Assembly (NCBI GenBank): GCA_051954195.1
Contig: JBQCHZ010000015.1
Coordinates: 18,357-82,356, forward strand
From: Marmoricola sp.
Lineage (GTDB): Bacteria > Actinomycetota > Actinomycetes > Propionibacteriales > Nocardioidaceae
Length of the DNA: 64,000 bases
Reading direction: 5' to 3'
Below the pieces are notes generated by a model, which had not been told where the DNA came from, did not search any database, and saw only the letters and a list, made by a program, of their open reading frames with translations. The translations under genes and the position numbers were made by a program. The first letter of the stretch is position 1; every line of letters starts with the position of its first letter. This document shows positions 43,981 to 56,295 of this stretch, piece by piece.

Positions 43981-44277
43981 TCAGTCCCGGCCCACCCGCA
44001 TCTCGACGCCCACCACGTCGTCGAGGTCGCTGCCGGCCTGGCGGCGGATCGCGACCCGCAGCGGCAGGAGGTAGCGGCCGTCCTTCGGGAACAGCGCGGT
44101 GGCGAAGGTGACGTCGCCGATGCGCGCGACCACCGGCACCTGGCCCCAGTACTCCAGCCCCTTCGCGGCGACCTTGACGTCCTCGCTCTCCTCGCCGGGG
44201 ATCGCGACGAAGAAGAAGGGCGCGGGCCCCCGCCACTCGATGACGGGTCCCTCGAAGACGAACGGCCAGCTCCCCAC
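43981..44277 (-). CDS. DUF1905 domain protein
   Basis: FEGPVIEWRGPAPFFFV, YWGQVPVVARIG, FATALFPKDGRYLLPL. Confidence 0.85.
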   Translation of the reverse strand: MGSWPFVFEGPVIEWRGPAPFFFVAIPGEESEDVKVAAKGLEYWGQVPVVARIGDVTFATALFPKDGRYLLPLRVAIRRQAGSDLDDVVGVEMRVGRD

Positions 44278-44283
44278 GACCTG

Positions 44284-44291
44284 AGTATACT
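44284..44291. promoter_or_regulatory. Palindromic bidirectional -10 element (AGTATACT) serving two leaderless divergent genes
   Basis: TATACT on + (44286-44291) is 6 nt before ATG 44298; TATACT on - (44289-44284) is 6 nt before GTG 44277. Confidence 0.75.
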
Positions 44292-44297
44292 GATGGT

Positions 44298-44525
44298 ATG
44301 ACCAGCACGACCATCAAGGTGACGGCGGAGGTCCGTGACCGGCTGAAGGTCCAGGCCGCCCGGGAGCACCGGACGCTCGGCGAGCACCTCGGACACCTCG
44401 CAGACCTCGCCGACCGCGAGCAGCGGTTTGACGCGCTCAGGAACGCCATGGCGACCACTTCCGCGGAGGAGATGTCGTCGTACGCCGAAGAGGTCGCCGC
44501 CTGGGACGACCTCGAGCGCGGTTGA
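44298..44525 (+). CDS. Putative type II antitoxin (ribbon-helix-helix-like)
   Basis: 75 aa; TTIKVTAEVRDRLKVQA beta-alpha-alpha pattern with acidic tail; directly upstream of the toxin. Confidence 0.75.
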   Translation: MTSTTIKVTAEVRDRLKVQAAREHRTLGEHLGHLADLADREQRFDALRNAMATTSAEEMSSYAEEVAAWDDLERG

Positions 44526-44533
44526 TCCCGCGC

Positions 44534-44866
44534 ATGACGGATCTGGCGCCAGGCGACGTCGTGTGGGTGTCGCCCGACGTCACCGTGGGCCGCGAGCAGG
44601 CCGGCCGCCGCCCTGCCGTCATCGTCGCCGGCCGAACGTACCTGGAGGTCGTCGACACGCTCGCCGTCGTCGTTCCGATCACGACCGTGCACCGCGGTTG
44701 GCCCAACCACGTCGCCGTCGGAGCGGCGCTGAAGCAGCCGTCGTGGGCGATGACCGAACAGGTTCGCACCGTGTCGCGCCGCCGGATCACCAGCTACGCC
44801 GGCGCGACCTCTCCCGGGACGCTCGCGGACATCCGACGCTGGATCAGCGACTTCCTCGAGCTCTGA
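44534..44866 (+). CDS. mazF: PemK/MazF family endoribonuclease toxin
   Basis: PGDVVWV...GREQAGRRPAVIV...VVPITT...AMTEQVRTVSRRRI; start ATG 44534 or TTG 44522. Confidence 0.9.
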   Translation: MTDLAPGDVVWVSPDVTVGREQAGRRPAVIVAGRTYLEVVDTLAVVVPITTVHRGWPNHVAVGAALKQPSWAMTEQVRTVSRRRITSYAGATSPGTLADIRRWISDFLEL

Positions 44867-44881: not shown

Positions 44882-45223
44882 TCACCTGCGATGGAGGGCG
44901 ACGGCGGAACGAACGAGGTCGACGAAGGCGTCCTCGTTGATCTCGTCGCTCTCGAAGAGGTCCACCGCGCGGCGGGTGCCGGCATCCATGCTGGCGTTGA
45001 AGATCCCCGTCGGGTCCTCGAGCGAGGCGCCCTTCGCGAAGGTGACCTTCACCTTGTCCTTGTAGGTCTCCACGGTGCAGACCAGCCCGTCGCAGGAGAA
45101 CGTCGGCACGCCGTCGGGATTCGTCGGCTTGCGCCACTTCGCCTCCTCCGACATGCCCGCGTCGGCGCTGAGGATCAGGCCGCGCAGCTGCTCGACGCGC
45201 ACGGTCCGCCAGTCGGTGCTCAT
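44882..45223 (-). CDS. DUF1801 (YdhG-like) protein
   Basis: [44 protein letters not shown]; leaderless TAGCGT 7 nt before the ATG. Confidence 0.85.
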
Positions 45224-45233
45224 GGCCGGCACG

Positions 45234-46748
45234 CTAGCGGAGCTCGCGCTTGAGGATCTTGCCCGTCGGGCCCTTCGGGAGGGTGTCGAGGAGGTTGATC
45301 TCGCGCGGGTACTTGTAGGCCGCGAGCCGCTCGCGGCAGTAGGCGGTGATGTCGTCGGGCGTGGTGGCGGCACCGGGGCGCAGGGCGACGTACGCGACGA
45401 CCTCCTCCCCCAGCCGCTCGTCGGGCTTGCCGACGACGGCCGCCTCGACGACGTCCGGGTGCTCGTAGAGCACCTCCTCGACCTCGCGCGGGTAGACGTT
45501 GTAGCCGCCGCGGATGACCAGGTCCTTGAGCCGGTCGACGATGTAGAGGTAGCCGTCCTCGTCGGCGTAGCCGAGGTCGCCGGTGTGCAGCCACCCGTCT
45601 CGCAGCGCCTCGGCCGTGGCCTCGGGCCGCTTGTAGTAGCCCTTCATCACGTTGTGGCCGCGGATCAGGATCTCGCCGACGTTCTCCATGCCCGGCGGCA
45701 ACTGCCGGCCGTCCTCGCCGACGACCTTGATCTCGACGCCCCAGATCGGCTTGCCGATCGAGAGCACCCGACGCTCCTCGGCGCTGATGTTGAACGTCGC
45801 GGTGCTGGCCGTCTCGGAAAGGCCGTAGCCCTCCAGGATGACCACGCCCTCGTACTTCTCCTCGAAGGCCCGGATCACCTCACCCGGGATGGATGCCCCG
45901 CCCGAGACCGCGGCACGCAGCGAGGACAGGTCCCGCCCGGTGGTGTCGGCTTGGAGCAGCGCGACGTACATGGTCGGCACGCCGGAGAAGATCGTGATCC
46001 GGTGCCGCTCGATCGCCTCGAGCACGTCGCCGGCGTCGAACCGCGGCAGCAGCACCATCGTCCCGCCGTACCGGACGGTGGTGTTGAGCACGCTGGAGAG
46101 CCCGAAGACGTGGAACAGCGGCAGCACGGCCGTCGACACGTCGTCGTCGTTGAAGTCGAACAGCCCGCCGGCGACGGTGCAGTTCATGTAGAGCTCGAAG
46201 TGCGTGAGCTCGGCGCCCTTCGGCTTGCCGGTGGTCCCGCTGGTGTAGAGCAGCACCGCGGTCTCGTCGGAGCCGAGCGCGACGCAGTCGCCGGTGTCAT
46301 CGGCGGCCAGCAGCCGCTCGAACGGCTGCGCACCGGCCGGCGGCTCGGCGCCGGAGACCGAGACCACGTACGTCGGCACGCCGCCCGCATCCGCCGCGCC
46401 CTGCATGGCGGGCTGCGCGAACATCTCGAAGGTGACCAGCAACCGGGCGTCGCTGTCGCTGAGGTGGTAGGCCACCTCGGGGGCGGTGAGCAGCGGGTTC
46501 AGCGGCACCATGACGAGCCCGGCCTTGAGGATGCCGAAGTAGCCGATCAGGAACTGCGGCAGGTTCGGCAGCTGCACCGCCACCTTGTCGCCGCGGCCCA
46601 GCCCCAGCTCGCCCAGCGTCGCGGCGAAGCGACCCGAGAGGTGGTCGATCTCCGCGTAGGTCAGCGAGCGGTCGCCGATGTGCACGAGCGGCTTGTCCGG
46701 CGACGTGCGGGCGGACTCGCGCAGCATCGTGGCGAGGTTGAACGACAT
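45234..46748 (-). CDS. Long-chain fatty acid-CoA ligase
   Basis: [45 protein letters not shown]. Confidence 0.93.
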
Positions 46749-46751
46749 GCG

Positions 46752-47747
46752 TCAGGCTCCTTCGAAGGGTGTGTCGTCGAAGAACGCGCGTGGGACGTCG
46801 ACGAGCATCGTGTCGATCTGCTCCTGGGTGACCCCGTGCTCGAGCACGTAGGGGAACACGTCCTCGAACAGGTGCGTGTAGTGCCACTGCGGCAGGAACG
46901 CCATCACGTTCGGGTCGATCCAGTCGATGTAGCAGGACGCGTCCTGCGACAGCACCATCCGCTCGGTGTAGCCGCGGCGGACCATCTCGACGAGCGTGTC
47001 CGCGCGGGCCTCGAAGGTGGTCTCGAGGTTGATGCCGAAGCGGTCCATGCCGAGCACGAAGCCGGCATCGGCCAGCGCGCTGAGGTGGTCGCAGTCCGTC
47101 GTGTCACCGCTGTGGCCGAGCACGATCCGCCCGGGCTCGACGCCCTCCTCCTCACACATCACCCGCTGCACGTGCAGCCCCGCCTGCGACCCCGGGTGGG
47201 TGTGCACGGTGATCGGCACACCGGTCGCGTGGTGCGCCTTCGCGACGGCGCGCATGACCCGCTCGACGCCCGGGGTCAGCCCCGGCTTGTCGATCGCGCA
47301 CTTCAGCATCCCGGCGCGCACACCGGTGCCGGCGATCCCGTCGCGGATGTCGCCCACGAACATGTCCACCATCGGGTCGGGCACCTCGGCGCCGAGCGCC
47401 TCGTTGAGCGCAGGTCCGCGGTGGTGGAAGTAGAACGGCACGTCGTGGTAGGTGTAGACGCCGGTGGCGACCACGATCCGCACCGGCGTCTGCTCGGCGA
47501 CCTGCTGGATGCGCGGGATGTAGCGCCCGAGCCCGATCACCGTGGGGTCGACGATCGTCCGGACGCCGGCGTCGTGGGCCTGCTGGAGCTTCGCGACCGC
47601 GTCGGCGACGCGCTCCTCCTCCGAGCCCCACTCCTCGGGGTGGTTCTGCTGGACGTCGGGGGTCAGCACGAAGACGTGCTCGTGCATCAGGGTGACGCCG
47701 AGGTCGTCGACCTCGACCGGGCCGGTGGCCGTCTGGACGGTGCTCAA
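46752..47747 (-). CDS. Phosphotriesterase-like lactonase (PLL / Php family)
   Basis: TLMHEHVF, MLKCA (carboxy-Lys), ITVHTH, LGHSGD, LSQDAS; TTG start. Confidence 0.9.
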   Translation of the reverse strand: MSTVQTATGPVEVDDLGVTLMHEHVFVLTPDVQQNHPEEWGSEEERVADAVAKLQQAHDAGVRTIVDPTVIGLGRYIPRIQQVAEQTPVRIVVATGVYTYHDVPFYFHHRGPALNEALGAEVPDPMVDMFVGDIRDGIAGTGVRAGMLKCAIDKPGLTPGVERVMRAVAKAHHATGVPITVHTHPGSQAGLHVQRVMCEEEGVEPGRIVLGHSGDTTDCDHLSALADAGFVLGMDRFGINLETTFEARADTLVEMVRRGYTERMVLSQDASCYIDWIDPNVMAFLPQWHYTHLFEDVFPYVLEHGVTQEQIDTMLVDVPRAFFDDTPFEGA

Positions 47748-47766
47748 CAGGTGCTCCTCGGGGTGC

Positions 47767-48882
47767 TCAGAGGTCGACGAGGCCGGCGAGGTGGGCCCGG
47801 TGCGCGCCCGGCGTGCCGAGCGCGATCTGGTCGGACTTCGCCCGCTTCAGGCGCAGGTGCGTGGGGTGCTCCCAGGTCATGCCGATGCCGCCGTGCAGCT
47901 GCAGCGCCTCCTCGGACGCACGGACGGCGAGGTCCCCGCAGTACGACGCCGCCAGGGCCGTCGCGACCGGCAGGTCGCTCTGCTGGTCACGCACACCGTC
48001 GTTTGCCAGCACGTCCGCCAGCGCGTCCGCCAGCACGGCCGCCGCGTACGCCGCGGCGGCGGAGCCTGACTCGACCTCGGCGTAGAGGTCGGCCAGCCGG
48101 TGCTTGAGCGCCTGGAACCCGCCGAGGACGCGACCGAACTGGGTGCGCACCTTCAGGTAGGCGGTCGTCTCCTCCAGGCACCACCGCGCCACGCCGACCT
48201 GCTCGGAGGCGAGCAGCGCGACGGTCGCGGTGAGCCCGCGCCGGATCGCGCCCTCCGCGTCGTCGATCAGCACCTCGCCGAGGCTCCCGATCCGGACGTC
48301 GGCCAGCTGACGCGTCATGTCCAGCGACGTCACCGGGGCCAGCTCCGCCTCCTCCGCCGGTACGGCGTGCAGCGCAATCCGGTCCCCCGCGGCCACCGGC
48401 ACCAGCAGCACGTCGGCCTCGAGGGCGCCGGCGACGCTGGTGACGACGTCACCGGCCGAGACCGTCGGGATGGCCGCGTGCGGAGCGGTGGACCACGGCA
48501 CCACCAGGGCCGCGGTCCGCTCCCCCGAGGCCAGCTCGGCCAGCAGCGGCGCGCCGGAGCCCAGCAGCACCGTGGTCGCCAGCACGGCGCTGGTCAGGAA
48601 CGGCACCGGCGCGACGGCACGGCCCAGCTCCTCCAGCACGGCGGCCGCTTCGCGGGCCGACGCACCCGCGCCGCCCTCATCCTCGGGCACGAGCAGGCCC
48701 GCCAGGCCGACGTCGACGGCCAGCGCGCGCCACAGCGGCGCCACGACCGCACGGTCGCCGTCGTAGAGCGCGTTGAGGGCGCCGATCCCTCGGGCGTCGA
48801 GCCGGTCGGCGAGCAGGTCGCGGACGGTGCCGCGCAGGTCCGCCTCGACCTCGGTCGGCAGCAGGTCCACGGTGTCGGTCAT
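47767..48882 (-). CDS. Acyl-CoA dehydrogenase family protein, probable non-catalytic subunit
   Basis: QFGRVLGGFQALKHRLAD and HGGIGMTWEH; C-terminal RAKSDQIALGT lacks the usual catalytic Glu. Confidence 0.85.
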   Translation of the reverse strand: MTDTVDLLPTEVEADLRGTVRDLLADRLDARGIGALNALYDGDRAVVAPLWRALAVDVGLAGLLVPEDEGGAGASAREAAAVLEELGRAVAPVPFLTSAVLATTVLLGSGAPLLAELASGERTAALVVPWSTAPHAAIPTVSAGDVVTSVAGALEADVLLVPVAAGDRIALHAVPAEEAELAPVTSLDMTRQLADVRIGSLGEVLIDDAEGAIRRGLTATVALLASEQVGVARWCLEETTAYLKVRTQFGRVLGGFQALKHRLADLYAEVESGSAAAAYAAAVLADALADVLANDGVRDQQSDLPVATALAASYCGDLAVRASEEALQLHGGIGMTWEHPTHLRLKRAKSDQIALGTPGAHRAHLAGLVDL

Positions 48883-50066
48883 CGGCTGAGCTCCTTCCAG
48901 GGCCGGTCCTTGTCGACCCGGTGCTCGCCGGGCAGGCCGAGGACCCGCTCGGCGACGACGTTGCGCAGGATCTCCGAGGTGCCGCCCTCGATGGAGTTCC
49001 CCTTGGCGCGCAGGTAGCGGTAGACGGCGTCGCGCCCGGTGAAGTCGACGCGGTCGGGCCGGACCATCTCCCAGCCGGGCTCGCTGGTGTAGCGCAGCCC
49101 CTCCTCGCCGAGGACCTCCAGCTCCAGGCCGGACAGCTGCTGGTTGGTCCGCGCGAAGGACAGCTTCATCGCCGCGCCCTCGGGGCCGGGGTGGCCGCTG
49201 GCGAGCTTCTGGCCCAGGCGCATGCCGGTGATCCGGGCGACCTCCGCGTCCACCCACAGCCGGACGAGCCGGTCACGCAGCTCGGGCGTCTGCGCGTCCG
49301 GGTGCTCGCGCCAGGTCCGCGCGACCCGGCCGATCATCCCGCTCTCGCGGTCGCCGACGTGGCCGCCGATCGCGACCCGCTCGCTGTTCAGCGTCGCGGT
49401 CGCGACCCGCCAGCCCTCGCCCTCCGCCCCGAGGCGCATGGCGTCGGGGATGCGCACGTCGGTGAGGAACACCTCGTTGAACTCCGCCTCCCCGGTGATC
49501 TGCCGCAGCGGCCGGACCTCCACGCCGGGGTCGGTCATGTCGCACAGGAAGTAGGTCAGGCCGGAGTGCTTGGCCTGGTCGGGATCGGTGCGGGCCACCA
49601 GCAGCGCGAACCGGGAGTTCTGCGCACCCGAGGTCCACACCTTCTGGCCGTTGACGACCCAGGCGTCGCCGTCGCGCACGGCTCGGGTGGAGACGTTGGC
49701 CAGGTCGGAGCCGGCGCCGGGCTCGCTGAACAGCTGGCACCAGATCTCCTCGCCCGTCCACAGCGGCCGCAACAGCCGGTCCTTCTGCTCCTGCGTGCCG
49801 AAGGCGAGGATCGTCGGGGCGGCCATGCCGAGGCCGATGCCGTTCTTGTACGGCTTGTTGTCCGGCGCCCCGGCGGCGGCGAAGGCGGCGTCCACGTCGC
49901 GCTGGAGCGAGCGGGAGAGGCCCAGCCCCCCGTGGCCATCGGGGAAGGCGACCCAGGCCAGGCCGGCGTCGTACCGGGCGCGCAGGAAGTCCAGCCGGTC
50001 GGTCGTCGCCGGGTCGTGCTCGGCGAGGAAGGCGTCGATGCGGCCCCGCAGGTCCTCAGGCAGCAC
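48879..50066 (-). CDS. Acyl-CoA dehydrogenase family protein
   Basis: WCQLFSEPGAGSDLA, VNGQKVWTS, EFNEVF, NSIEGGTSEILRN. Confidence 0.92.
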   Translation of the reverse strand: MLPEDLRGRIDAFLAEHDPATTDRLDFLRARYDAGLAWVAFPDGHGGLGLSRSLQRDVDAAFAAAGAPDNKPYKNGIGLGMAAPTILAFGTQEQKDRLLRPLWTGEEIWCQLFSEPGAGSDLANVSTRAVRDGDAWVVNGQKVWTSGAQNSRFALLVARTDPDQAKHSGLTYFLCDMTDPGVEVRPLRQITGEAEFNEVFLTDVRIPDAMRLGAEGEGWRVATATLNSERVAIGGHVGDRESGMIGRVARTWREHPDAQTPELRDRLVRLWVDAEVARITGMRLGQKLASGHPGPEGAAMKLSFARTNQQLSGLELEVLGEEGLRYTSEPGWEMVRPDRVDFTGRDAVYRYLRAKGNSIEGGTSEILRNVVAERVLGLPGEHRVDKDRPWKELSR

Positions 50067-50069
50067 GCG

Positions 50070-51308
50070 TCACTCCCCCCGGGCCGCGGCCTGACGGCGC
50101 AGCTCGGCCTTCGCCAGGGCGTTCTTGTGGACCTCGTCGGGCCCGTCGGCGAACCGCAGCGTGCGGATGCCGGCGATCATGTTGGCCAGGGGGAAGTCCT
50201 GCGACAGACCGCCGGCACCATGCGCCTGGATCGCCTTGTCGAGGATCCACTCCACCGTCGCGGGGGTGGCGATCTTGATCGCCTGGATCTCGGTGTGGGC
50301 GGCCTTGTTGCCGACGGTGTCCATCAGCCAGGCGGCCTTGAGCACCAGCAGCCGCAGCTGCTCCAGCCGCACCCGGGACTCCGCGATCCAGTCGCGGATC
50401 ACGCCCTGCTGGGACAGCGGCTTGCCGAACGCGACCCGGCTCTCCACCCGGGCGCACATCAGCTCGATGGCCCGCTCGGCGACGCCGATCGACCGCATGC
50501 AGTGGTGGATGCGTCCCGGGCCCAGCCGCGCCTGGGCGACCGCGAAGCCGGCGCCCTCCACCGCGATCAGGTTGCTCGCCGGCACCCGGGCGTCGGTGAA
50601 CCGGAGCTCGGCGTGGCCGCCGTGCTCGTGGTCGTCGTAGCCGAGCACGTGCATCCCCCGCACGATCTCCAGGCCAGGGGTGTCGCGCTCGACGAGGATC
50701 ATCGACTGCTGACGGTGCCGGTCGGCGGACGGGTCGGTCTTCCCCATCACGATGAAGATCTCGCAGTTCGGGTTCATCGCACCGGTGATCCACCACTTGC
50801 GGCCGTTGAGGACGTACTCGTCGCCGTCCTTGACGATGCTCGTGGAGATGTTGGTGGCGTCGGAGGACGCGACGTCGGGCTCGGTCATCGCGAACGCCGA
50901 GCGGATCTGGGCCTTCAGGAGCGGCTCGAGCCAGCGCTGCTTCTGCTCCTCGGTGCCGAACTGCGAGAGCACCTCCATGTTGCCGGTGTCGGGAGCAGCG
51001 CAGTTCATCGCCGGAGGCGCGAGGTGCGCGCTGCGCCCGGAGATCTCCGCGACCGCCGCGTACTGGAGATTTGAGATGACACCCCCCGCCGGGCTTTCAG
51101 AACCGGGGAGGAAGAGGTTCCACAGGCCGCGCTTCTGCGCCTCGGCACGCAGCTCGGCGAGCACCGGCACGGAGTCCCAGGCCCAGCGGTCCTCGAGCTG
51201 CTCGACCTGCTCACCGAACACCTGCTCGGCCGGGTAGACGTGACCCTCCATGAACTCCGTCATGGTGGAGCGCAGCTCCTCGGTGCGGGCGTCGTAGGAA
51301 AAGTCCAT
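50070..51308 (-). CDS. Acyl-CoA dehydrogenase, ACAD10/11 / LvaC type
   Basis: WNLFLP, NCAAPDTGNMEVL, SAFAMTEPDVASSDATNI, GRKWWITGA, AQARLGPGRIHHCMR, LRFADGPDEVH. Confidence 0.9.
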   Translation of the reverse strand: MDFSYDARTEELRSTMTEFMEGHVYPAEQVFGEQVEQLEDRWAWDSVPVLAELRAEAQKRGLWNLFLPGSESPAGGVISNLQYAAVAEISGRSAHLAPPAMNCAAPDTGNMEVLSQFGTEEQKQRWLEPLLKAQIRSAFAMTEPDVASSDATNISTSIVKDGDEYVLNGRKWWITGAMNPNCEIFIVMGKTDPSADRHRQQSMILVERDTPGLEIVRGMHVLGYDDHEHGGHAELRFTDARVPASNLIAVEGAGFAVAQARLGPGRIHHCMRSIGVAERAIELMCARVESRVAFGKPLSQQGVIRDWIAESRVRLEQLRLLVLKAAWLMDTVGNKAAHTEIQAIKIATPATVEWILDKAIQAHGAGGLSQDFPLANMIAGIRTLRFADGPDEVHKNALAKAELRRQAAARGE

Positions 51309-51334
51309 CAGTGGTGCTCCTTCGGGAGATCGGG

Positions 51335-52357
51335 CTAGAGGGTCGTGTCGAGGGCGTCGAGGCCCGCGGTGAGCAGCGGGTCGATGGCCGCGCCGATGCC
51401 GGCGAAGCCCTCCCCGACGGTCTGACCGTGAAGGAAGCGGTAGTGGATGCCCTCGAGGATCGCGGCGAGCTTGAACGCCGCGAGCCCGAGGTGGAAGCCG
51501 AAGCGGGACAGGTCGCGGTCGCTGCCGGCGGCGTAGCGCTCGACGACGGCGCGCTCGTCGAGGAAGCCGGGAGCGGCCGACACGTTGGTGACCGCGTTGC
51601 TGTCGGCCGCCGCCCCGAGGCGGTGGTAGACGAGCATCAGCGCGAGGTCGGCCAGCGGGTCCCCGAGGGTGGCCATCTCCCAGTCGAGCACCGCGGTGAT
51701 CCGGTCGTGGTCGTCGACCAGGGCGTTGTCGAGGCGGAAGTCGCCGTGCACGATGCCGGCGGCCGACTCCGGCGGCACGTCGGCGGCCAGGCGCGCGTAG
51801 AGCTCGTCGGCCAGCGGCAGGTCGCGGCTGTGCGAGGCGTCGAGCTGCTTCTTCCACCGCGCCACCTGGCGGCCCAGGTATCCCTCCGGCCGTCCGAAGT
51901 CGCCCAGGCCCACGGCGGCGGGGTCGACGGCGTGCAGGGCGGCCAGGGTGTCGACCAGCCGCTCGGAGATGGCGCGGGTGCGGTCCACGCCGAGCGCCTC
52001 GAGCTCCTCGGCGCGCCGGTACGGCGTACCGGGCACCCGCTCCATCACGTAGAACGGCGCTCCCACGACGGTGTCGTCGGTGCACAGGCCGTAGGTGAGC
52101 GGCACCGGCACGGCGGTGTCCCGCAGCGCGGTCATCACCCGGAACTCGCGACCCATGTCGTGGGCGGTCGCCAGCACGTGGCCGAGCGGCGGGCGGCGGA
52201 CGATCCAGTCGCGGGCGCCGTCGCCCACGACGTAGGTCAGGTTGGACTTCCCGCCGGCGATCAGCGTTGCGGTCAGCGGACCGTCGACACCGTCGATGTG
52301 CCGGTCGAACCAGCCGCCCAACCGATCGAGGTCAAGCCCCGGAGGTGCCTCGCTCAC
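51335..52357 (-). CDS. APH-family phosphotransferase (ACAD10/11 kinase domain / LvaA-like)
   Basis: IAGGKSNLTY, RRPPLGHVLATAHDMGREF, GAPFYVME, IVHGDFRLDN, VLDWEMATLGDPLADL. Confidence 0.9.
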   Translation of the reverse strand: MSEAPPGLDLDRLGGWFDRHIDGVDGPLTATLIAGGKSNLTYVVGDGARDWIVRRPPLGHVLATAHDMGREFRVMTALRDTAVPVPLTYGLCTDDTVVGAPFYVMERVPGTPYRRAEELEALGVDRTRAISERLVDTLAALHAVDPAAVGLGDFGRPEGYLGRQVARWKKQLDASHSRDLPLADELYARLAADVPPESAAGIVHGDFRLDNALVDDHDRITAVLDWEMATLGDPLADLALMLVYHRLGAAADSNAVTNVSAAPGFLDERAVVERYAAGSDRDLSRFGFHLGLAAFKLAAILEGIHYRFLHGQTVGEGFAGIGAAIDPLLTAGLDALDTTL

Positions 52358-53157
52358 GCGTCGTACCCTTCCTTGCTCTCCAGGTAGCGCTGGAGCTTGT
52401 TCATCCCGCCGAGCCAGCGGTCGGTGTCCTCGGCGCGGGCGCGGTAGTAGCCGGCCACCTGCGGGTGCGGCAGGATCAGGAACCGGTCGTCGCCCAGGGC
52501 CTCCCAGACGGTGTCCGCGACGTCCTCGGGGGACAGCGCGCCGTCGGCCACGAGCAGCTCCTGCATCGGTCCCGAGCCCGCGAGCATGTCGGTCTGCACG
52601 CCCTCGGGGCAGATCGCCTGGACGGTGATGCCGCGGTGCTTGTAGGTGGCTGCGAGCCACTCGGCGAAGCCGACCGCCCCGTGCTTGGTGACCGAGTACG
52701 TCGCGCTGCCGAGGGAGGTGAGCAGGCCGGCGGCCGATGCGGTGACCACGAAGCGGCCCTCGCCGCGCTCGAGCCACGCGGGGAGGAGCATCCGGGCGGC
52801 GCGCACGTGCGCCATCGTGTTCACCTCCCAGCTGGTGGCCCACTCGGCCTCGCTGGCGTCGAGCCCGATGCCGCGCACGACGCCGGCGTTGGCGAACCAC
52901 ACGTCGATCGCGCCCAGGTGCTCGCGGGCCGCCTCGACCAGCGCGGTGATGCCGGCCTCGGACGCCCCGTCGCCGGGCACGGGGTGGGCGCCGATCTCGG
53001 TGGCCGTGGCGGTGGTGCGCTCGGCGTCCAGGTCGTTGATCACGACCCGCGCCCCTCCGGCGACGAGCCGCGTCGCGATGGCCCGTCCGATGCCGCCGGC
53101 GGCACCGGTGACGACGACGCCCCTGCCGTGCAGCCTGCCCTCCGCCCCGGCGCTCAC
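52354..53157 (-). CDS. SDR family oxidoreductase
   Basis: VTGAAGGIG, FANAG, TASAAG, YSVTKH. Confidence 0.9.
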   Translation of the reverse strand: MSAGAEGRLHGRGVVVTGAAGGIGRAIATRLVAGGARVVINDLDAERTTATATEIGAHPVPGDGASEAGITALVEAAREHLGAIDVWFANAGVVRGIGLDASEAEWATSWEVNTMAHVRAARMLLPAWLERGEGRFVVTASAAGLLTSLGSATYSVTKHGAVGFAEWLAATYKHRGITVQAICPEGVQTDMLAGSGPMQELLVADGALSPEDVADTVWEALGDDRFLILPHPQVAGYYRARAEDTDRWLGGMNKLQRYLESKEGYDA

Positions 53158-53915
53158 TCGCCGCCCCCGGCGAGGGTGACGCCGCCGTCGAGCACGACCG
53201 TCTGGCCGGTGAGCCACGCGGCGTCCTCGGAGAGCAGGAACGCCACGGCGCCGGCGATGTCCTCCGGCACGCCCAGACGCTTGAGCGGGTAGGCGGCCGC
53301 AACCTTCTCCTCGCGGCCCTCGTAGAGCGCGGTGGCGAACCTGGTCTTGACCACCGCCGGGGCCACCGCGTTGACCCGGATCGACGGCCCCAGCTCGACG
53401 GCCAGCAGCTCGGTCATCGAGATCAGCATCGCCTTGCTGGCGCCGTACATGCCGATGCCGGGCGCGGGCCGGACCCCGGACACCGAGGAGACGTTGACGA
53501 CCGCCCCGCCGTGCTCGGCCATCCAGGCCCGGTGCGCCGCCTGGGTCCAGGCGAGCGCGGCGAGGCAGTTGACCTCGACGATCTTGCGGGCGGCGTCGAG
53601 GTCGATGTCGATCATCGGGCCGTAGGCGGGGTTGATCCCGGCGTTGTTGACCAGCAGTTCGAGGCTGCCGAAGCGGTCGAGCGCCTGGCCCACCGCCTCC
53701 TGCTGGTGCTCGGGGTCATCGGCCCGGCCGGCTACGGCGACGGCCACGTCGGGCCCGCCCAGCGCCGCGACGGCCTCCTGGAGCGCCTCCGCCTTCCGCG
53801 CCGTCAGGACCACCCGGGCGCCCTCGGCGACGAGGCGCTCGGCGATGCCGAGACCGATGCCGCGACTGGCTCCCGTGACGATCGCCGTCCTGCCCTCGAA
53901 CCGCCTGCTGACCAC
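53154..53915 (-). CDS. SDR family oxidoreductase (FabG / DHRS4-like)
   Basis: TGASRGIG, VNNAGINP, YGASKA, RVNAVAPAVVKTRFA. Confidence 0.9.
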   Translation of the reverse strand: MVSRRFEGRTAIVTGASRGIGLGIAERLVAEGARVVLTARKAEALQEAVAALGGPDVAVAVAGRADDPEHQQEAVGQALDRFGSLELLVNNAGINPAYGPMIDIDLDAARKIVEVNCLAALAWTQAAHRAWMAEHGGAVVNVSSVSGVRPAPGIGMYGASKAMLISMTELLAVELGPSIRVNAVAPAVVKTRFATALYEGREEKVAAAYPLKRLGVPEDIAGAVAFLLSEDAAWLTGQTVVLDGGVTLAGGGE

Positions 53916-53950
53916 GCGCTCTCCTTCGCCGGGCTCGCCGCTCTTCTCAA

Positions 53951-53968
53951 ACTAAGCGCTTGCTTAGT
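53951..53968. promoter_or_regulatory. TetR operator candidate
   Basis: ACTAAGC-GCTT-GCTTAGT palindrome between the divergent SDR operon and tetR. Confidence 0.75.
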
Positions 53969-54034
53969 ACGGTGCGCCTACTCTGCACCGCCGCCCCGAC
54001 GGCGTCAACGGTGCCGGGCCGCGAAAGGAGCGCC

Positions 54035-54646
54035 ATGTCCGAGCTGCCGCCTCCCGGGGCTGCGAGCCGGGGCGACGACACCCGCGAGCGCCTGCTGCGC
54101 GCCGCCATCGGTGCCTTCGCCGAGCGGGGCTTCCACGCCACCACCACGCGCGACATCGCCGCGGCGGCCGGGATGAGCCCGGCGGCCGTCTACGTGCACC
54201 ACCGCTCCAAGGAGGAGCTGCTGCACCAGATCGCGCGGTCGGGGCACGAGCGCACCCTGGGGCTGGTCCGCGAGGCCGTCGCCTCGGCCGACGACGCCGC
54301 CGGACAGCTGCGCGCCCTGGTCCGGTCCTTCGCGCGCCACCATGCCGAGGAGAACACCAGCGCCCGGGTGGTCAACTACGAGCTGAGCGCGCTCAGCCCC
54401 GAGCACGCCGCCGAGATCCAGGAGCTGCGCCGGGAGATCAGCGCCGAGATGCGCGCCCTGGTGCAGCGCGGCGTCGACGACGGCAGCTTCGACTGCCCGC
54501 AGCCGCGGATCGCGGCCACCGCGCTGCTCTCGCTCGGCATCGACATCGCCCGCTGGTACCGCGAGGACCGGTCCTGGACGCCGGAGGAGCTCGCCGCCTC
54601 CTACGCCGACCTCGCCCTGCGCATCGTCGGCTCCCGGAGCGCTTGA
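54035..54646 (+). CDS. TetR/AcrR family regulator
   Basis: AFAERGFHATTTRDIAAAAGMSPAAVYVHHRSKEELL; ATG after AAGGAG. Confidence 0.93.
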   Translation: MSELPPPGAASRGDDTRERLLRAAIGAFAERGFHATTTRDIAAAAGMSPAAVYVHHRSKEELLHQIARSGHERTLGLVREAVASADDAAGQLRALVRSFARHHAEENTSARVVNYELSALSPEHAAEIQELRREISAEMRALVQRGVDDGSFDCPQPRIAATALLSLGIDIARWYREDRSWTPEELAASYADLALRIVGSRSA

Positions 54647-54783
54647 GCCGCCCGTGTGAATCGCGAACGTGGCGAAGGTCTCAGCGTCCTGGGGCACGCT
54701 TCGGCGCTGGTGCGTTGTTGTCACGGGCAAGGATCTCTCGACCGCCCGTGCATCCGGTGCAGGGCACCAGGAGGACAGCCGCT

Positions 54784-56295
54784 GTGAGCAGCGCACGACA
54801 GCCCGGTACGACCTACGACGCGTTGCTGATCGGGGGCGGCATCATGTCGGCCACGCTCGCGACCCTGCTGCACCAGGTGGAGCCCACCTGGCGGATCGGA
54901 CTGGTCGAGCGGCTGCCCGAGCTGGCGAAGGAGTCCTCGGACCCCTGGAACAACGCAGGCACCGGGCACGCGGCGCTGTGCGAGCTGAACTACTCCCCCG
55001 AGCTCCCCGACGGCAGCGTCGACATCAGCAAGGCGATCACCGTCAACGAGCAGTTCCTGCTCAGCCGGCAGCTGTGGGCCGCGCTGGTCGAGGCCGGCCA
55101 CCTGCCCGAGCCGGCCGCGTTCATCCACCCGACGCCGCACGTCAGCTTCGTCTGGGGCGCCGACAACGTGGCCTACCTGCGCCGTCGCTACGAGCAGATG
55201 TCGCAGCACCCGCTCTTCCGCGGCATGGAGTTCAGCGACGACCCGGCCGTGATCAGGAGCTGGGCGCCGCTGCTCATCGAGGGCCGCGACCCCGCCGAGC
55301 CGGTGGCCGCCACCCGTGCCACGGCCGGCACCGACGTCGACTTCGGCTCGCTGACCCGGCACCTGATCTCGGGGTTGACCGACACCGGCGACCTCGAGCT
55401 GGCGCTGGGCATCGAGGTCCGCGACGTCACCCGCGTCGGGGAGCAGTGGCGGGTCGAGGGCGTGCGCATCGCCGGCACCGGTGAGCGGACGTTCGAGGCG
55501 ACCGCACCGTTCGTCTTCGTCGGCGCCGGCGGGCAGGCGCTGACCCTGCTGCAGAAGGCGGGCATCCCCGAGATCCGCGGCTACGCCGGATTCCCCGTGT
55601 CCGGTGAGTTCTGGCGCACGACCAACCCCGAGGTCGTCGCCCAGCACCACGTCAAGGCCTACGGCAAGGCGGCCGTCGGGGCGCCTCCGATGTCGGTCCC
55701 CCACCTCGACTCCCGCACCGTGGACGGCAGCCCCAGCCTGATGTTCGGGCCGTACGCCGGCTTCAGCCCGCGGTTCCTCAAGAACGGCTCGCTCTTCGAC
55801 CTGCTCAGGTCGGTGCGCGTGCACAACGTCGTGCCGATGGTGCAGGCGGGCCTGCGCAACCTCGGCCTCGTCGTCTACCTCGTCGGCCAGCTGCTCGCCT
55901 CCCGCAAGGACCAGCTCGCCGAGCTGCGCGCCTTCTACCCCGACGCCAAGGCCGAGGACTGGGAGAAGATCACGGCCGGCCAGCGCGTCCAGGTGATCAA
56001 GAAGGTGCCCGGCAAGGGCGGCGTGCTCCAGTTCGGCACCGAGGTGGTCACCGCGGCCGACGGCTCCATCGCGGGCCTGCTCGGCGCCTCCCCCGGCGCC
56101 TCGACCGCGGTCGCGGCGATGCTCGACGTGATGGGCCGCTGCTTCGGCGACCGCATGCAGGAGTGGGCCCCGGCGATCGAGAAGGCGATCCCGAGCTGGG
56201 GCACCGACCTCGGTAGGCACGCCGACGCCGCCGCCGACGTGCTGGCCACCACCGCCCGCGTCCTCGACCTCGAGGACGCGGCCGACCGCGCCTGA
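54784..56295 (+). CDS. mqo: Malate:quinone oxidoreductase
   Basis: LIGGGIMSATL, WNNAGTGHAALCELNY, GTDVDFG, MSVPHLD, AGQRVQVIK, LQFGTEVV, LLGASPGAST. Confidence 0.95.
   Translation: MSSARQPGTTYDALLIGGGIMSATLATLLHQVEPTWRIGLVERLPELAKESSDPWNNAGTGHAALCELNYSPELPDGSVDISKAITVNEQFLLSRQLWAALVEAGHLPEPAAFIHPTPHVSFVWGADNVAYLRRRYEQMSQHPLFRGMEFSDDPAVIRSWAPLLIEGRDPAEPVAATRATAGTDVDFGSLTRHLISGLTDTGDLELALGIEVRDVTRVGEQWRVEGVRIAGTGERTFEATAPFVFVGAGGQALTLLQKAGIPEIRGYAGFPVSGEFWRTTNPEVVAQHHVKAYGKAAVGAPPMSVPHLDSRTVDGSPSLMFGPYAGFSPRFLKNGSLFDLLRSVRVHNVVPMVQAGLRNLGLVVYLVGQLLASRKDQLAELRAFYPDAKAEDWEKITAGQRVQVIKKVPGKGGVLQFGTEVVTAADGSIAGLLGASPGASTAVAAMLDVMGRCFGDRMQEWAPAIEKAIPSWGTDLGRHADAAADVLATTARVLDLEDAADRA

Follow-up and report, generated by a model that had tools for sequence, protein, structure and literature searches.

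The window analysed here, a 64,000-nucleotide stretch of contig JBQCHZ010000015.1 from the actinobacterium Marmoricola sp., carries eight closely packed minus-strand genes (45234-53915) and a divergent gene for a TetR-family regulator. The reading that we favour, and consider rather probable, is that these constitute a TetR-repressed catabolic operon which funnels gamma-lactones, as well as free 4-oxo and 4-hydroxy acids, into beta-oxidation. We infer the steps from homology and gene context. A cytoplasmic phosphotriesterase-like lactonase (PLL) would open the lactone ring to give a 4-hydroxy acid, or a 4-oxo acid where the substrate is an enol-lactone, and a ligase would convert the acid to its coenzyme A (CoA) thioester. 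A short-chain dehydrogenase/reductase (SDR1) would then use NADPH to reduce 4-oxoacyl-CoA to 4-hydroxyacyl-CoA, the role taken by LvaD in Pseudomonas putida; an APH-fold kinase would place a phosphate on the 4-hydroxyl of 4-hydroxyacyl-CoA; and a flavoenzyme of the acyl-CoA dehydrogenase (ACAD) 10/11 type would eliminate the phosphate from 4-phosphoacyl-CoA to leave a 2-enoyl-CoA. General beta-oxidation would take over from there, with an alpha/beta ACAD perhaps acting on the shortened or unusual acyl-CoA, and a second, NAD-dependent SDR (SDR2) may serve either as a hydroxyacyl-CoA dehydrogenase or to re-oxidise the 4-hydroxy enantiomer that the kinase refuses. The repressor is expected to bind an 18-bp palindrome between the divergent genes, its release probably being triggered by an acyl-CoA intermediate. 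The route from lactone through 4-hydroxy acid, CoA ester and 4-phospho ester to enoyl-CoA had been proposed in an earlier annotation made from the DNA letters alone (the sequence-only reading), and it is still the best reading of the locus, supported by the active-site residues, by the linkage of lactonase to kinase and ACAD, and by the operator. The features are as follows.

54035-54646, plus strand: TetR repressor gene (Pfam TetR_N and TetR_C_24; alternative upstream start TTG at 53960)
53951-53968, no strand: predicted TetR operator, the 18-bp palindrome ACTAAGC-GCTT-GCTTAGT
53154-53915, minus strand: SDR1, NADPH-type short-chain reductase (Pfam adh_short)
52354-53157, minus strand: SDR2, NAD-type short-chain dehydrogenase (Pfam adh_short)
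51335-52357, minus strand: APH-fold kinase of the LvaA / ACAD10-11 kinase type (Pfam APH, 186 bits)
50070-51308, minus strand: ACAD flavoenzyme of the ACAD10/11-LvaC type (match to the ACAD domain of mouse ACAD11)
48879-50066, minus strand: ACAD alpha, of the heteromeric alpha2beta2 type (4x28 chain A, 6wy8 chain B)
47767-48882, minus strand: ACAD beta, of the heteromeric alpha2beta2 type (4x28 chain D, 6wy8 chain A)
46752-47747, minus strand: PLL lactonase, PPH type (Pfam PTE, PF02126, 297 bits)
45234-46748, minus strand: AMP-forming acyl-CoA ligase (Pfam AMP-binding and AMP-binding_C)

The TetR-controlled run of nine genes described in the sequence-only reading was confirmed in full by Pfam matches and inspection of start codons, with every gene where it had been placed. 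At a G+C content of ~72% the real genes of this region are overlapped by many spurious open reading frames, and the gene model was drawn from third-position G+C together with the Pfam matches and start codons. Neighbouring genes overlap by 4 bp at the SDR1/SDR2 junction (the SDR2 start overlapping the SDR1 stop as GTGA), at the SDR2/kinase junction and between ACAD alpha and ACAD beta (as ATGA). The remaining gaps measure 3 to 26 bp: the lactonase and ligase genes are separated by 3 bp on the same strand, and the kinase gene lies 26 bp upstream of that for the ACAD10/11-type enzyme. With such spacing the eight genes almost certainly form a single transcription unit. The overlaps, and gaps that nowhere exceed 26 bp, therefore leave no room in the operon for a gene encoding a small partner protein such as LvaB; the sequence-only reading had likewise seen no LvaB-like gene. 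A scan for promoters and terminators was uninformative, yielding no promoter-like site, and terminator-like matches solely on the plus strand and inside genes.

The kinase and the ACAD10/11-type enzyme keep the residues that matter in mouse ACAD11, and their functions are predicted on this basis. The 412-residue ACAD matches the ACAD domain of mouse ACAD11 (8v3u) with an E value of 4e-136 and carries the motifs RLGPGRIHHCMR and ADGPDEVH, both identical to 8v3u in the alignment and corresponding to R626, R631, H634, R637 and D753 of the mouse protein. It is these four basic residues, together with the catalytic aspartate D753, that bind and eliminate the 4-phosphate in mouse ACAD11 (PMC12440821). 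Both the Arg/His/Arg phosphate-binding helix (R626, H634, R637) and the Asp which replaces the catalytic Glu (D753) are present. The closest solved relatives of the kinase are 9o56 (E 5e-65), a bacterial ACAD10-type kinase, 3dxp (E 1e-55) and the kinase domain of mouse ACAD11 (E 7e-49). 9o56 is probably the Caldalkalibacillus thermarum enzyme solved in a preprint on alkylglycerol phosphorylation that is discussed below. Compared with mouse ACAD11, the kinase retains the catalytic HxDxxxxN motif as HGDFRLDN (D220, N225), the DWE metal site as LDWE, and the arginine of GRQV, which is the equivalent of the CoA-contacting R176; the position of mouse R86 aligns ambiguously. We regard the APH protein as a predicted 4-hydroxyacyl-CoA 4-kinase. 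Each of the two genes is the only one of its type or subtype in the host genome, which measures 3.29 Mb and is 99.8% complete. LvaB is not needed for ACAD10/11 or for the enzymes of Burkholderia pseudomallei, whose split orthologues replace the ACAD10 domains in vitro without it (PMC11342911), and P. citronellolis is likewise without LvaB (PMC6692424).

The phosphotriesterase (PTE)-family protein is predicted to be a lactonase of the PLL family, of the PPH type. Its closest solved relative is PPH of Mycobacterium tuberculosis (Rv0230c; 4if2), to which it aligns over its full length (391 bits, E 5e-116), compared with ~250 bits for the archaeal lactonases SisLac and SsoPox and ~160 bits or less for true phosphotriesterases (PTE and OpdA variants). 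The PF02126 domain is full-length, covering residues 11-323. The metal ligands (HxH, carboxylated Lys, His, His and Asp), which lie in the motifs MHEHVF, LKCA, VHTH, GHSGD and SQDAS, all align with those of 4if2 and 4g2d. A protein search with the lactonase returned generic names alone, with no match labelled QsdA or AhlA; the closest sequence, at 92% identity, comes from a Marmoricola metagenome-assembled genome (MAG). We also considered whether this protein might instead be a phosphomonoesterase acting on the 4-phospho intermediate, and rejected the idea because the ACAD has a full elimination site and the PTE family is not known for monoester hydrolysis. PPH and Rhodococcus AhlA hydrolyse short and long lactones, including N-acylhomoserine lactones (AHLs), in vitro, and the physiological role of PLLs is described as unknown, a question open since the family was recognised in 2006 (PMC3468530). 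Whereas this holds for PPH itself, with which all metal ligands are shared, the lactonase here sits in a gene context that suggests a role.

The activity of PPH- and AhlA-type PLLs on AHLs (PMC3468530), and the induction of the Rhodococcus qsd operon by AHLs (PMC6262395), are what one would expect if the enzyme served in signalling interference, inactivating the AHLs or gamma-butyrolactone autoregulators of neighbours while the other genes cleared the products. We regard this as improbable. The lactonase has no signal peptide, the cluster contains no amidase, and a ring-opened AHL is an N-acyl-homoserine, no known substrate of the kinase or the ACAD. Moreover, no lactone-sensing regulator of solved structure comes close to the TetR protein, whose nearest relatives of known ligand sense acyl-CoA. 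Consumption of AHLs or streptomycete butyrolactones, which the sequence-only reading had raised, is speculation that nothing in this analysis supports.

The remaining enzymes fit around the lactone pathway with differing degrees of certainty. The ligase passes the NCBIfam model NF004837 (long-chain-fatty-acid--CoA ligase) at 510 bits against a cut-off of 476, and its solved relatives include feruloyl/fatty-acyl-CoA synthetase and FadD13. Orthologues at 69-76% identity adjoin a PLL gene in many genomes, in either order. The earlier assignment of the pathway enzymes stood up well; the two SDRs and the ACAD pair had been left unexplained in it. The cofactor preference of an SDR is by common practice predicted from its motifs. 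SDR1 (253 residues) contains TGASRGIG...LTARK and YGASK, the LTARK after the second strand being an NADPH-type signature, and its best solved relative is the carbonyl reductase DHRS4 (E 4e-53). In the operon family described below, SDR1 nearly always accompanies the kinase-ACAD pair (among the matches listed), and this near-constant presence in the operon core fits the role of LvaD, making SDR1 a candidate 4-oxoacyl-CoA reductase. SDR2 contains TGAAGGIG...VINDLD and YSVTK, where VINDLD is an NAD-type signature, and among solved structures it is closest, though weakly, to the (3R)-hydroxyacyl-CoA dehydrogenase of yeast MFE-2 (E 2e-32). Our guess is that SDR2 acts as a hydroxyacyl-CoA dehydrogenase or as an oxidase of 4-hydroxy to 4-oxo compounds.

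The two adjacent, translationally coupled ACAD genes each best match the corresponding subunit of known heteromeric enzymes: ACAD alpha is most similar to ChsE4 (4x28 chain A) and Tcur3483 (6wy8 chain B), and ACAD beta to ChsE5 (4x28 chain D) and Tcur3481 (6wy8 chain A). The relation is distant, however, and the context here is not one of steroid catabolism. A further difference concerns the active site. ACAD alpha has a Glu aligned with the catalytic E247 of ChsE4, and in a short BLAST segment a Glu of ACAD beta (in LASEQVGVA) aligns with the catalytic Glu of alpha, at a position where ChsE5 has Gln, such that both subunits of the pair might be catalytic. Elsewhere, heteromeric alpha/beta ACADs are known from the breakdown of steroids, and the pair's best matches are ChsE4-ChsE5 and the IpdE-type pair of Thermomonospora curvata, with a weak match of ACAD beta to NCBIfam IpdE2 that falls below the cut-off. 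On these grounds one might propose a bulky cyclic or branched acyl-CoA as the substrate, for example one arising from a lactone that Baeyer-Villiger oxidation had made out of a steroid or terpenoid. This is the reading to which we give least credence, and we think it highly improbable: similarity to the steroid ACADs is remote (E 1e-38 and 1e-21), many operons of the family do without the ACAD pair, and neither a monooxygenase nor a MaoC pair, a thiolase or any other steroid gene is present.

A more speculative extension of the gamma-lactone pathway brings the two SDRs together. The ACAD10 kinase strongly prefers the R-enantiomer (PMC11342911), and for this reason SDR2 and SDR1 could act as a stereo-inversion pair in which SDR2 oxidises the 4-hydroxyacyl-CoA enantiomer rejected by the kinase to the 4-oxo form and SDR1 reduces the latter to the accepted enantiomer. 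In its fullest form the conjecture is that feeding gamma-lactones into the 4-phosphoacyl-CoA pathway is the native job of PPH-type lactonases, the M. tuberculosis enzyme included, with SDR2 and SDR1 providing the inversion here. We find this doubtful. If true, both enantiomers of natural lactones would be usable.

The predicted operator provides a further line of evidence. The ACTAAGC-N4-GCTTAGT site to which the sequence-only reading had drawn attention is present at 53951-53968, inside the 119-bp SDR1/TetR intergenic region, and it occurs only once in the 3.29-Mb genome, even when up to 2 mismatches are allowed. All 18 bases, including the spacer, are identical in loci of three other genomes (L138, L141 and L142), in each case once per 20-kb locus and exactly between TetR and SDR1. 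The pattern is also matched in L147 with one spacer base changed, in L143 and L124 with 1 mismatch, and exactly upstream of SDR1 in three species of Tsukamurella (L052, L058 and L062), while its half-sites adjoin the TetR gene in Rhodococcus opacus and R. koreensis. Conservation across actinobacterial families at an equivalent intergenic position is strong comparative evidence that the palindrome is a real operator, predicted to be the TetR site. One earlier detail needs correction. The TetR gene had been started at the TTG at 53960, and this codon lies within the palindrome; since the ATG at 54035 is preceded by a ribosome-binding site, GAAAGGAG, the latter is the more likely start. The best solved relative of the TetR protein is 3him, an uncharacterised Rhodococcus regulator (E 9e-37), and weaker matches include KstR2 and FadR proteins. 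KstR2 and FadR regulators sense acyl-CoA esters, and the TetR protein looks like an acyl-CoA sensor of this kind. Orthologues at 58-65% identity stand divergently beside the equivalent operon in other genomes.

To place the operon among its relatives we compared the surroundings of the 80 closest lactonase homologues in named genomes, and surveyed the class through an even sample of ~400 genomes in which all 68 PLL loci were fetched and scored. Among the 80 closest lactonases, the full gene order recurs in Nostocoides japonicum, in Nocardioides species and in six Tsukamurella genomes. Lactonase and kinase/ACAD genes occur together in other orders in Rhodococcus, Planobispora and the genome G059, and Aeromicrobium and several MAGs have the lactonase and ligase alone. 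Approached from the kinase, the loci of its orthologues in the ~400-genome sample share a core of TetR | SDR1-kinase-ACAD (among the matches listed), around which thiolase, SDR2, HAD, MaoC, a medium-chain dehydrogenase/reductase (MDR), the ACAD pair, ligase and lactonase vary. The operon is therefore a member of a widespread family with this core as its conserved heart; lactonase, ligase and ACAD pair join it as optional modules, and our view of what the ACAD pair does is a guess. In the survey, a kinase of ACAD10/11 type lies within ~10 kb of 10 of the 68 PLL loci, in at least four families and at least four arrangements, against a chance expectation of ~1% given one to five kinase genes per 3-10 Mb genome; because related genomes are not independent, this comparison is an order-of-magnitude argument.

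In expanded relatives the operon also includes genes for thiolase, MaoC hydratase, HAD hydrolase and enoyl/alkenal reductases, additions which fit a self-contained oxidation route. The Tsukamurella order is thiolase | SDR1, SDR2, MDR-reductase, HAD, SDR3, MaoC, kinase, ACAD, ACAD alpha, ACAD beta, lactonase and ligase, followed by a major facilitator superfamily (MFS) transporter. In Nocardioides phosphati a PTGR1-like alkenal/enone reductase (ADH_N_2; L017 10985-12007) follows the lactonase, which hints at substrates of the 4-hydroxy- or 4-oxo-alkenal type in some variants. A HAD-family hydrolase often stands just before the kinase in the expanded operons (L052 3520-4203, L138, L145, L146 and L148), mirroring the HAD-kinase-ACAD order of mammalian ACAD10.

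Several observations weigh against the lactone pathway as we have drawn it. Lactonase and ligase are absent from most operons of the family; the lactonase occurs in just one of 12 kinase-core loci, and there in a different gene order (among the matches listed). Conversely, ~85% of the 68 PLL genes are not near such a kinase, and the Nocardia clade has 30 PLL loci, every one of them solitary; on both counts the link between lactonase and kinase is facultative. What SDR2 and the ACAD pair do is a guess. Judged by Pfam matches and the flanking genes, there is no transporter gene in or adjoining this operon, and it contains neither a hydratase nor a thiolase. Finally, according to a 2026 preprint, ACAD10-type kinases, prokaryotic ones included, phosphorylate 1-O-alkylglycerols (10.1101/2025.09.10.675409).

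A conserved core without the lactonase would also be seen if the operon dealt with 4-oxo and 4-hydroxy acids, either of the levulinate type or products of lipid peroxidation such as 4-hydroxy- and 4-oxo-alkenoates. The lactonase would then salvage gamma-lactones formed spontaneously from 4-hydroxy acids or 4-hydroxyacyl-CoA, and environmental lactones would not be a growth substrate. It is established chemistry that 4-hydroxy thioesters tend to lactonise, the NADPH-type SDR1 implies entry of 4-oxo substrates, and a PTGR1-like alkenal reductase and MDR enoyl reductases turn up in relatives. The lactonase-ligase pair, however, travels as a unit, also on its own, and in the layout of the lactone-induced Rhodococcus qsd operon (PMC6262395). 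We consider salvage unlikely as the main purpose of the enzyme, though the enzymes and steps would otherwise be identical to those of the lactone pathway and the difference is one of emphasis.

The alkylglycerol result opens another possibility, namely that the substrate of the kinase is a lipid alcohol, for example 1-O-alkylglycerol, and that the cluster belongs to ether-lipid or other lipid metabolism. Its closest solved relative, 9o56, is a bacterial member of the ACAD10-type kinase family, several prokaryotic homologues phosphorylate chimyl alcohol (10.1101/2025.09.10.675409), and in expanded relatives the kinase is found together with a HAD hydrolase. The gene here, however, lies immediately upstream of an ACAD with the complete Arg/His/Arg phosphate-binding set and is co-transcribed, on the layout above, with a CoA ligase, and the window contains no HAD gene. 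Ether lipids, moreover, are not known as a feature of Actinobacteria. Both the surrounding operon and the intact site for phosphate elimination speak against this proposal, which we hold to be very improbable, and against a bulky cyclic or branched substrate.

The gamma-lactone pathway that we favour combines elements of three known systems. The first is the levulinate operon lvaABCDE of P. putida (Rand et al. 2017, as summarised in PMC6692424 and PMC12440821), which likewise unites a CoA ligase, an SDR reductase, an APH-type kinase and an LvaC-type ACAD and proceeds via 4-phosphoacyl-CoA, as we suppose is the case here. The Marmoricola operon differs in having a TetR repressor in place of LvaR, in lacking LvaB and the LvaFG transporters, and in adding a PLL lactonase, a second SDR and a heteromeric ACAD pair; its kinase and ACAD are also closer to ACAD11 than would be expected for a Pseudomonas-type copy. 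The second comprises mammalian ACAD11 and ACAD10 and the split B. pseudomallei orthologues (8v3u, 8v3v; PMC12440821, PMC11342911), with which the catalytic residues of the kinase and the phosphate-binding and catalytic residues of the ACAD are shared. In contrast to the mammalian proteins, the two domains are separate genes here, without a HAD domain, and lie within an operon predicted to open and activate lactones. The third is qsdR-qsdA-qsdC of Rhodococcus erythropolis, which acts on gamma-lactones and AHLs (PMC6262395, PMC3689677) and has a similar layout, with a divergent TetR gene and, on one strand, a PLL lactonase gene and behind it an acyl-CoA ligase gene; this operon is the precedent for a lactonase-ligase composition (PMC6262395). 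The fate of 4-hydroxyacyl-CoA is not specified in qsd, whereas the operon described here contains a candidate kinase and ACAD for it, and its TetR protein resembles acyl-CoA-sensing regulators. The operon would thus work like lva and ACAD10/11 with the lactonase-ligase composition of qsd, and is on present homology a strict member of neither the lva nor the qsd type.

A literature search for ACAD11 with lactonase found no publication linking a PLL lactonase to a kinase/ACAD module, and a paper on lactone desaturation in Rhodococcus names no genes (PMC12814362). The chemistry has precedents in Pseudomonas and mammals, and the pathway appears a sensible extension of a known one; the advance lies in the context and not in the principle. 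The qsd gamma-lactone pathway stops on paper at 4-hydroxyacyl-CoA, a compound beyond ordinary beta-oxidation. With lactonase and ligase in one unit with a kinase and flavoenzyme that would solve this problem, the gamma-lactone route becomes complete on paper and PLLs gain a testable physiological role. The operon also offers a compact gene set for engineering the use of gamma-valerolactone, levulinate and flavour lactones, and the widespread actinobacterial TetR regulon, with its unusually well-conserved operator, a ready-made inducible switch.

The distribution of the operon is patchy, and in the lactonase tree the Tsukamurella copies are nested among those of Nocardioidaceae; together these suggest that the operon moves horizontally. 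Among relatives in the same genus, 22 of the 24 searched have no lactonase match and the other 2 have distant ones, and the usual ACAD10/11-type gene is a paralogue at ~50% identity. One same-genus locus, L124 (G022:C3:142500-162400), has the arrangement TetR | SDR2-ACAD10/11-type ACAD-ACAD alpha-ACAD beta and its near-identical operator, with no kinase, lactonase or ligase in the cluster, and here the ACAD10/11-type enzyme has apparently been uncoupled from its kinase. Many more distant PLL genes are followed by a different AMP-ligase in a layout resembling qsdA-qsdC. Two contigs binned as Gemmatimonadota and Acidobacteriaceae (L072 and L084) encode lactonases 76-79% identical to the actinobacterial ones, with the same neighbours, and probably reflect a binning error or recent transfer.

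The flanks of the operon are unrelated to it, with DUF1801, MazF-type toxin, DUF1905 and GNAT genes on one side and a gene for malate:quinone oxidoreductase (Mqo) on the other. The DUF1801, MazEF, DUF1905 and Mqo genes were considered as operon members and rejected, as they are not kept beside the cluster in relatives. The small DUF1801 gene (44882-45200, minus strand) directly follows the ligase gene and is read in the same direction; not being conserved beside the cluster in relatives, it is probably outside the pathway. A MazF/PemK-type toxin gene (44244-44866, plus strand) with a small upstream open reading frame (43981-44313, minus strand) adjoins the DUF1905 gene. The closest relative, L013, has the ligase, DUF1905 and GNAT genes and lacks both the toxin module and the DUF1801 gene, which must therefore have been inserted here or lost in L013. 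The Mqo gene (54643-56295, plus strand) was not found adjoining the TetR gene in the other loci checked; in this genome the two genes share a strand and the Mqo gene begins at the TetR stop codon or immediately behind it, and read-through into it from the TetR promoter is possible.

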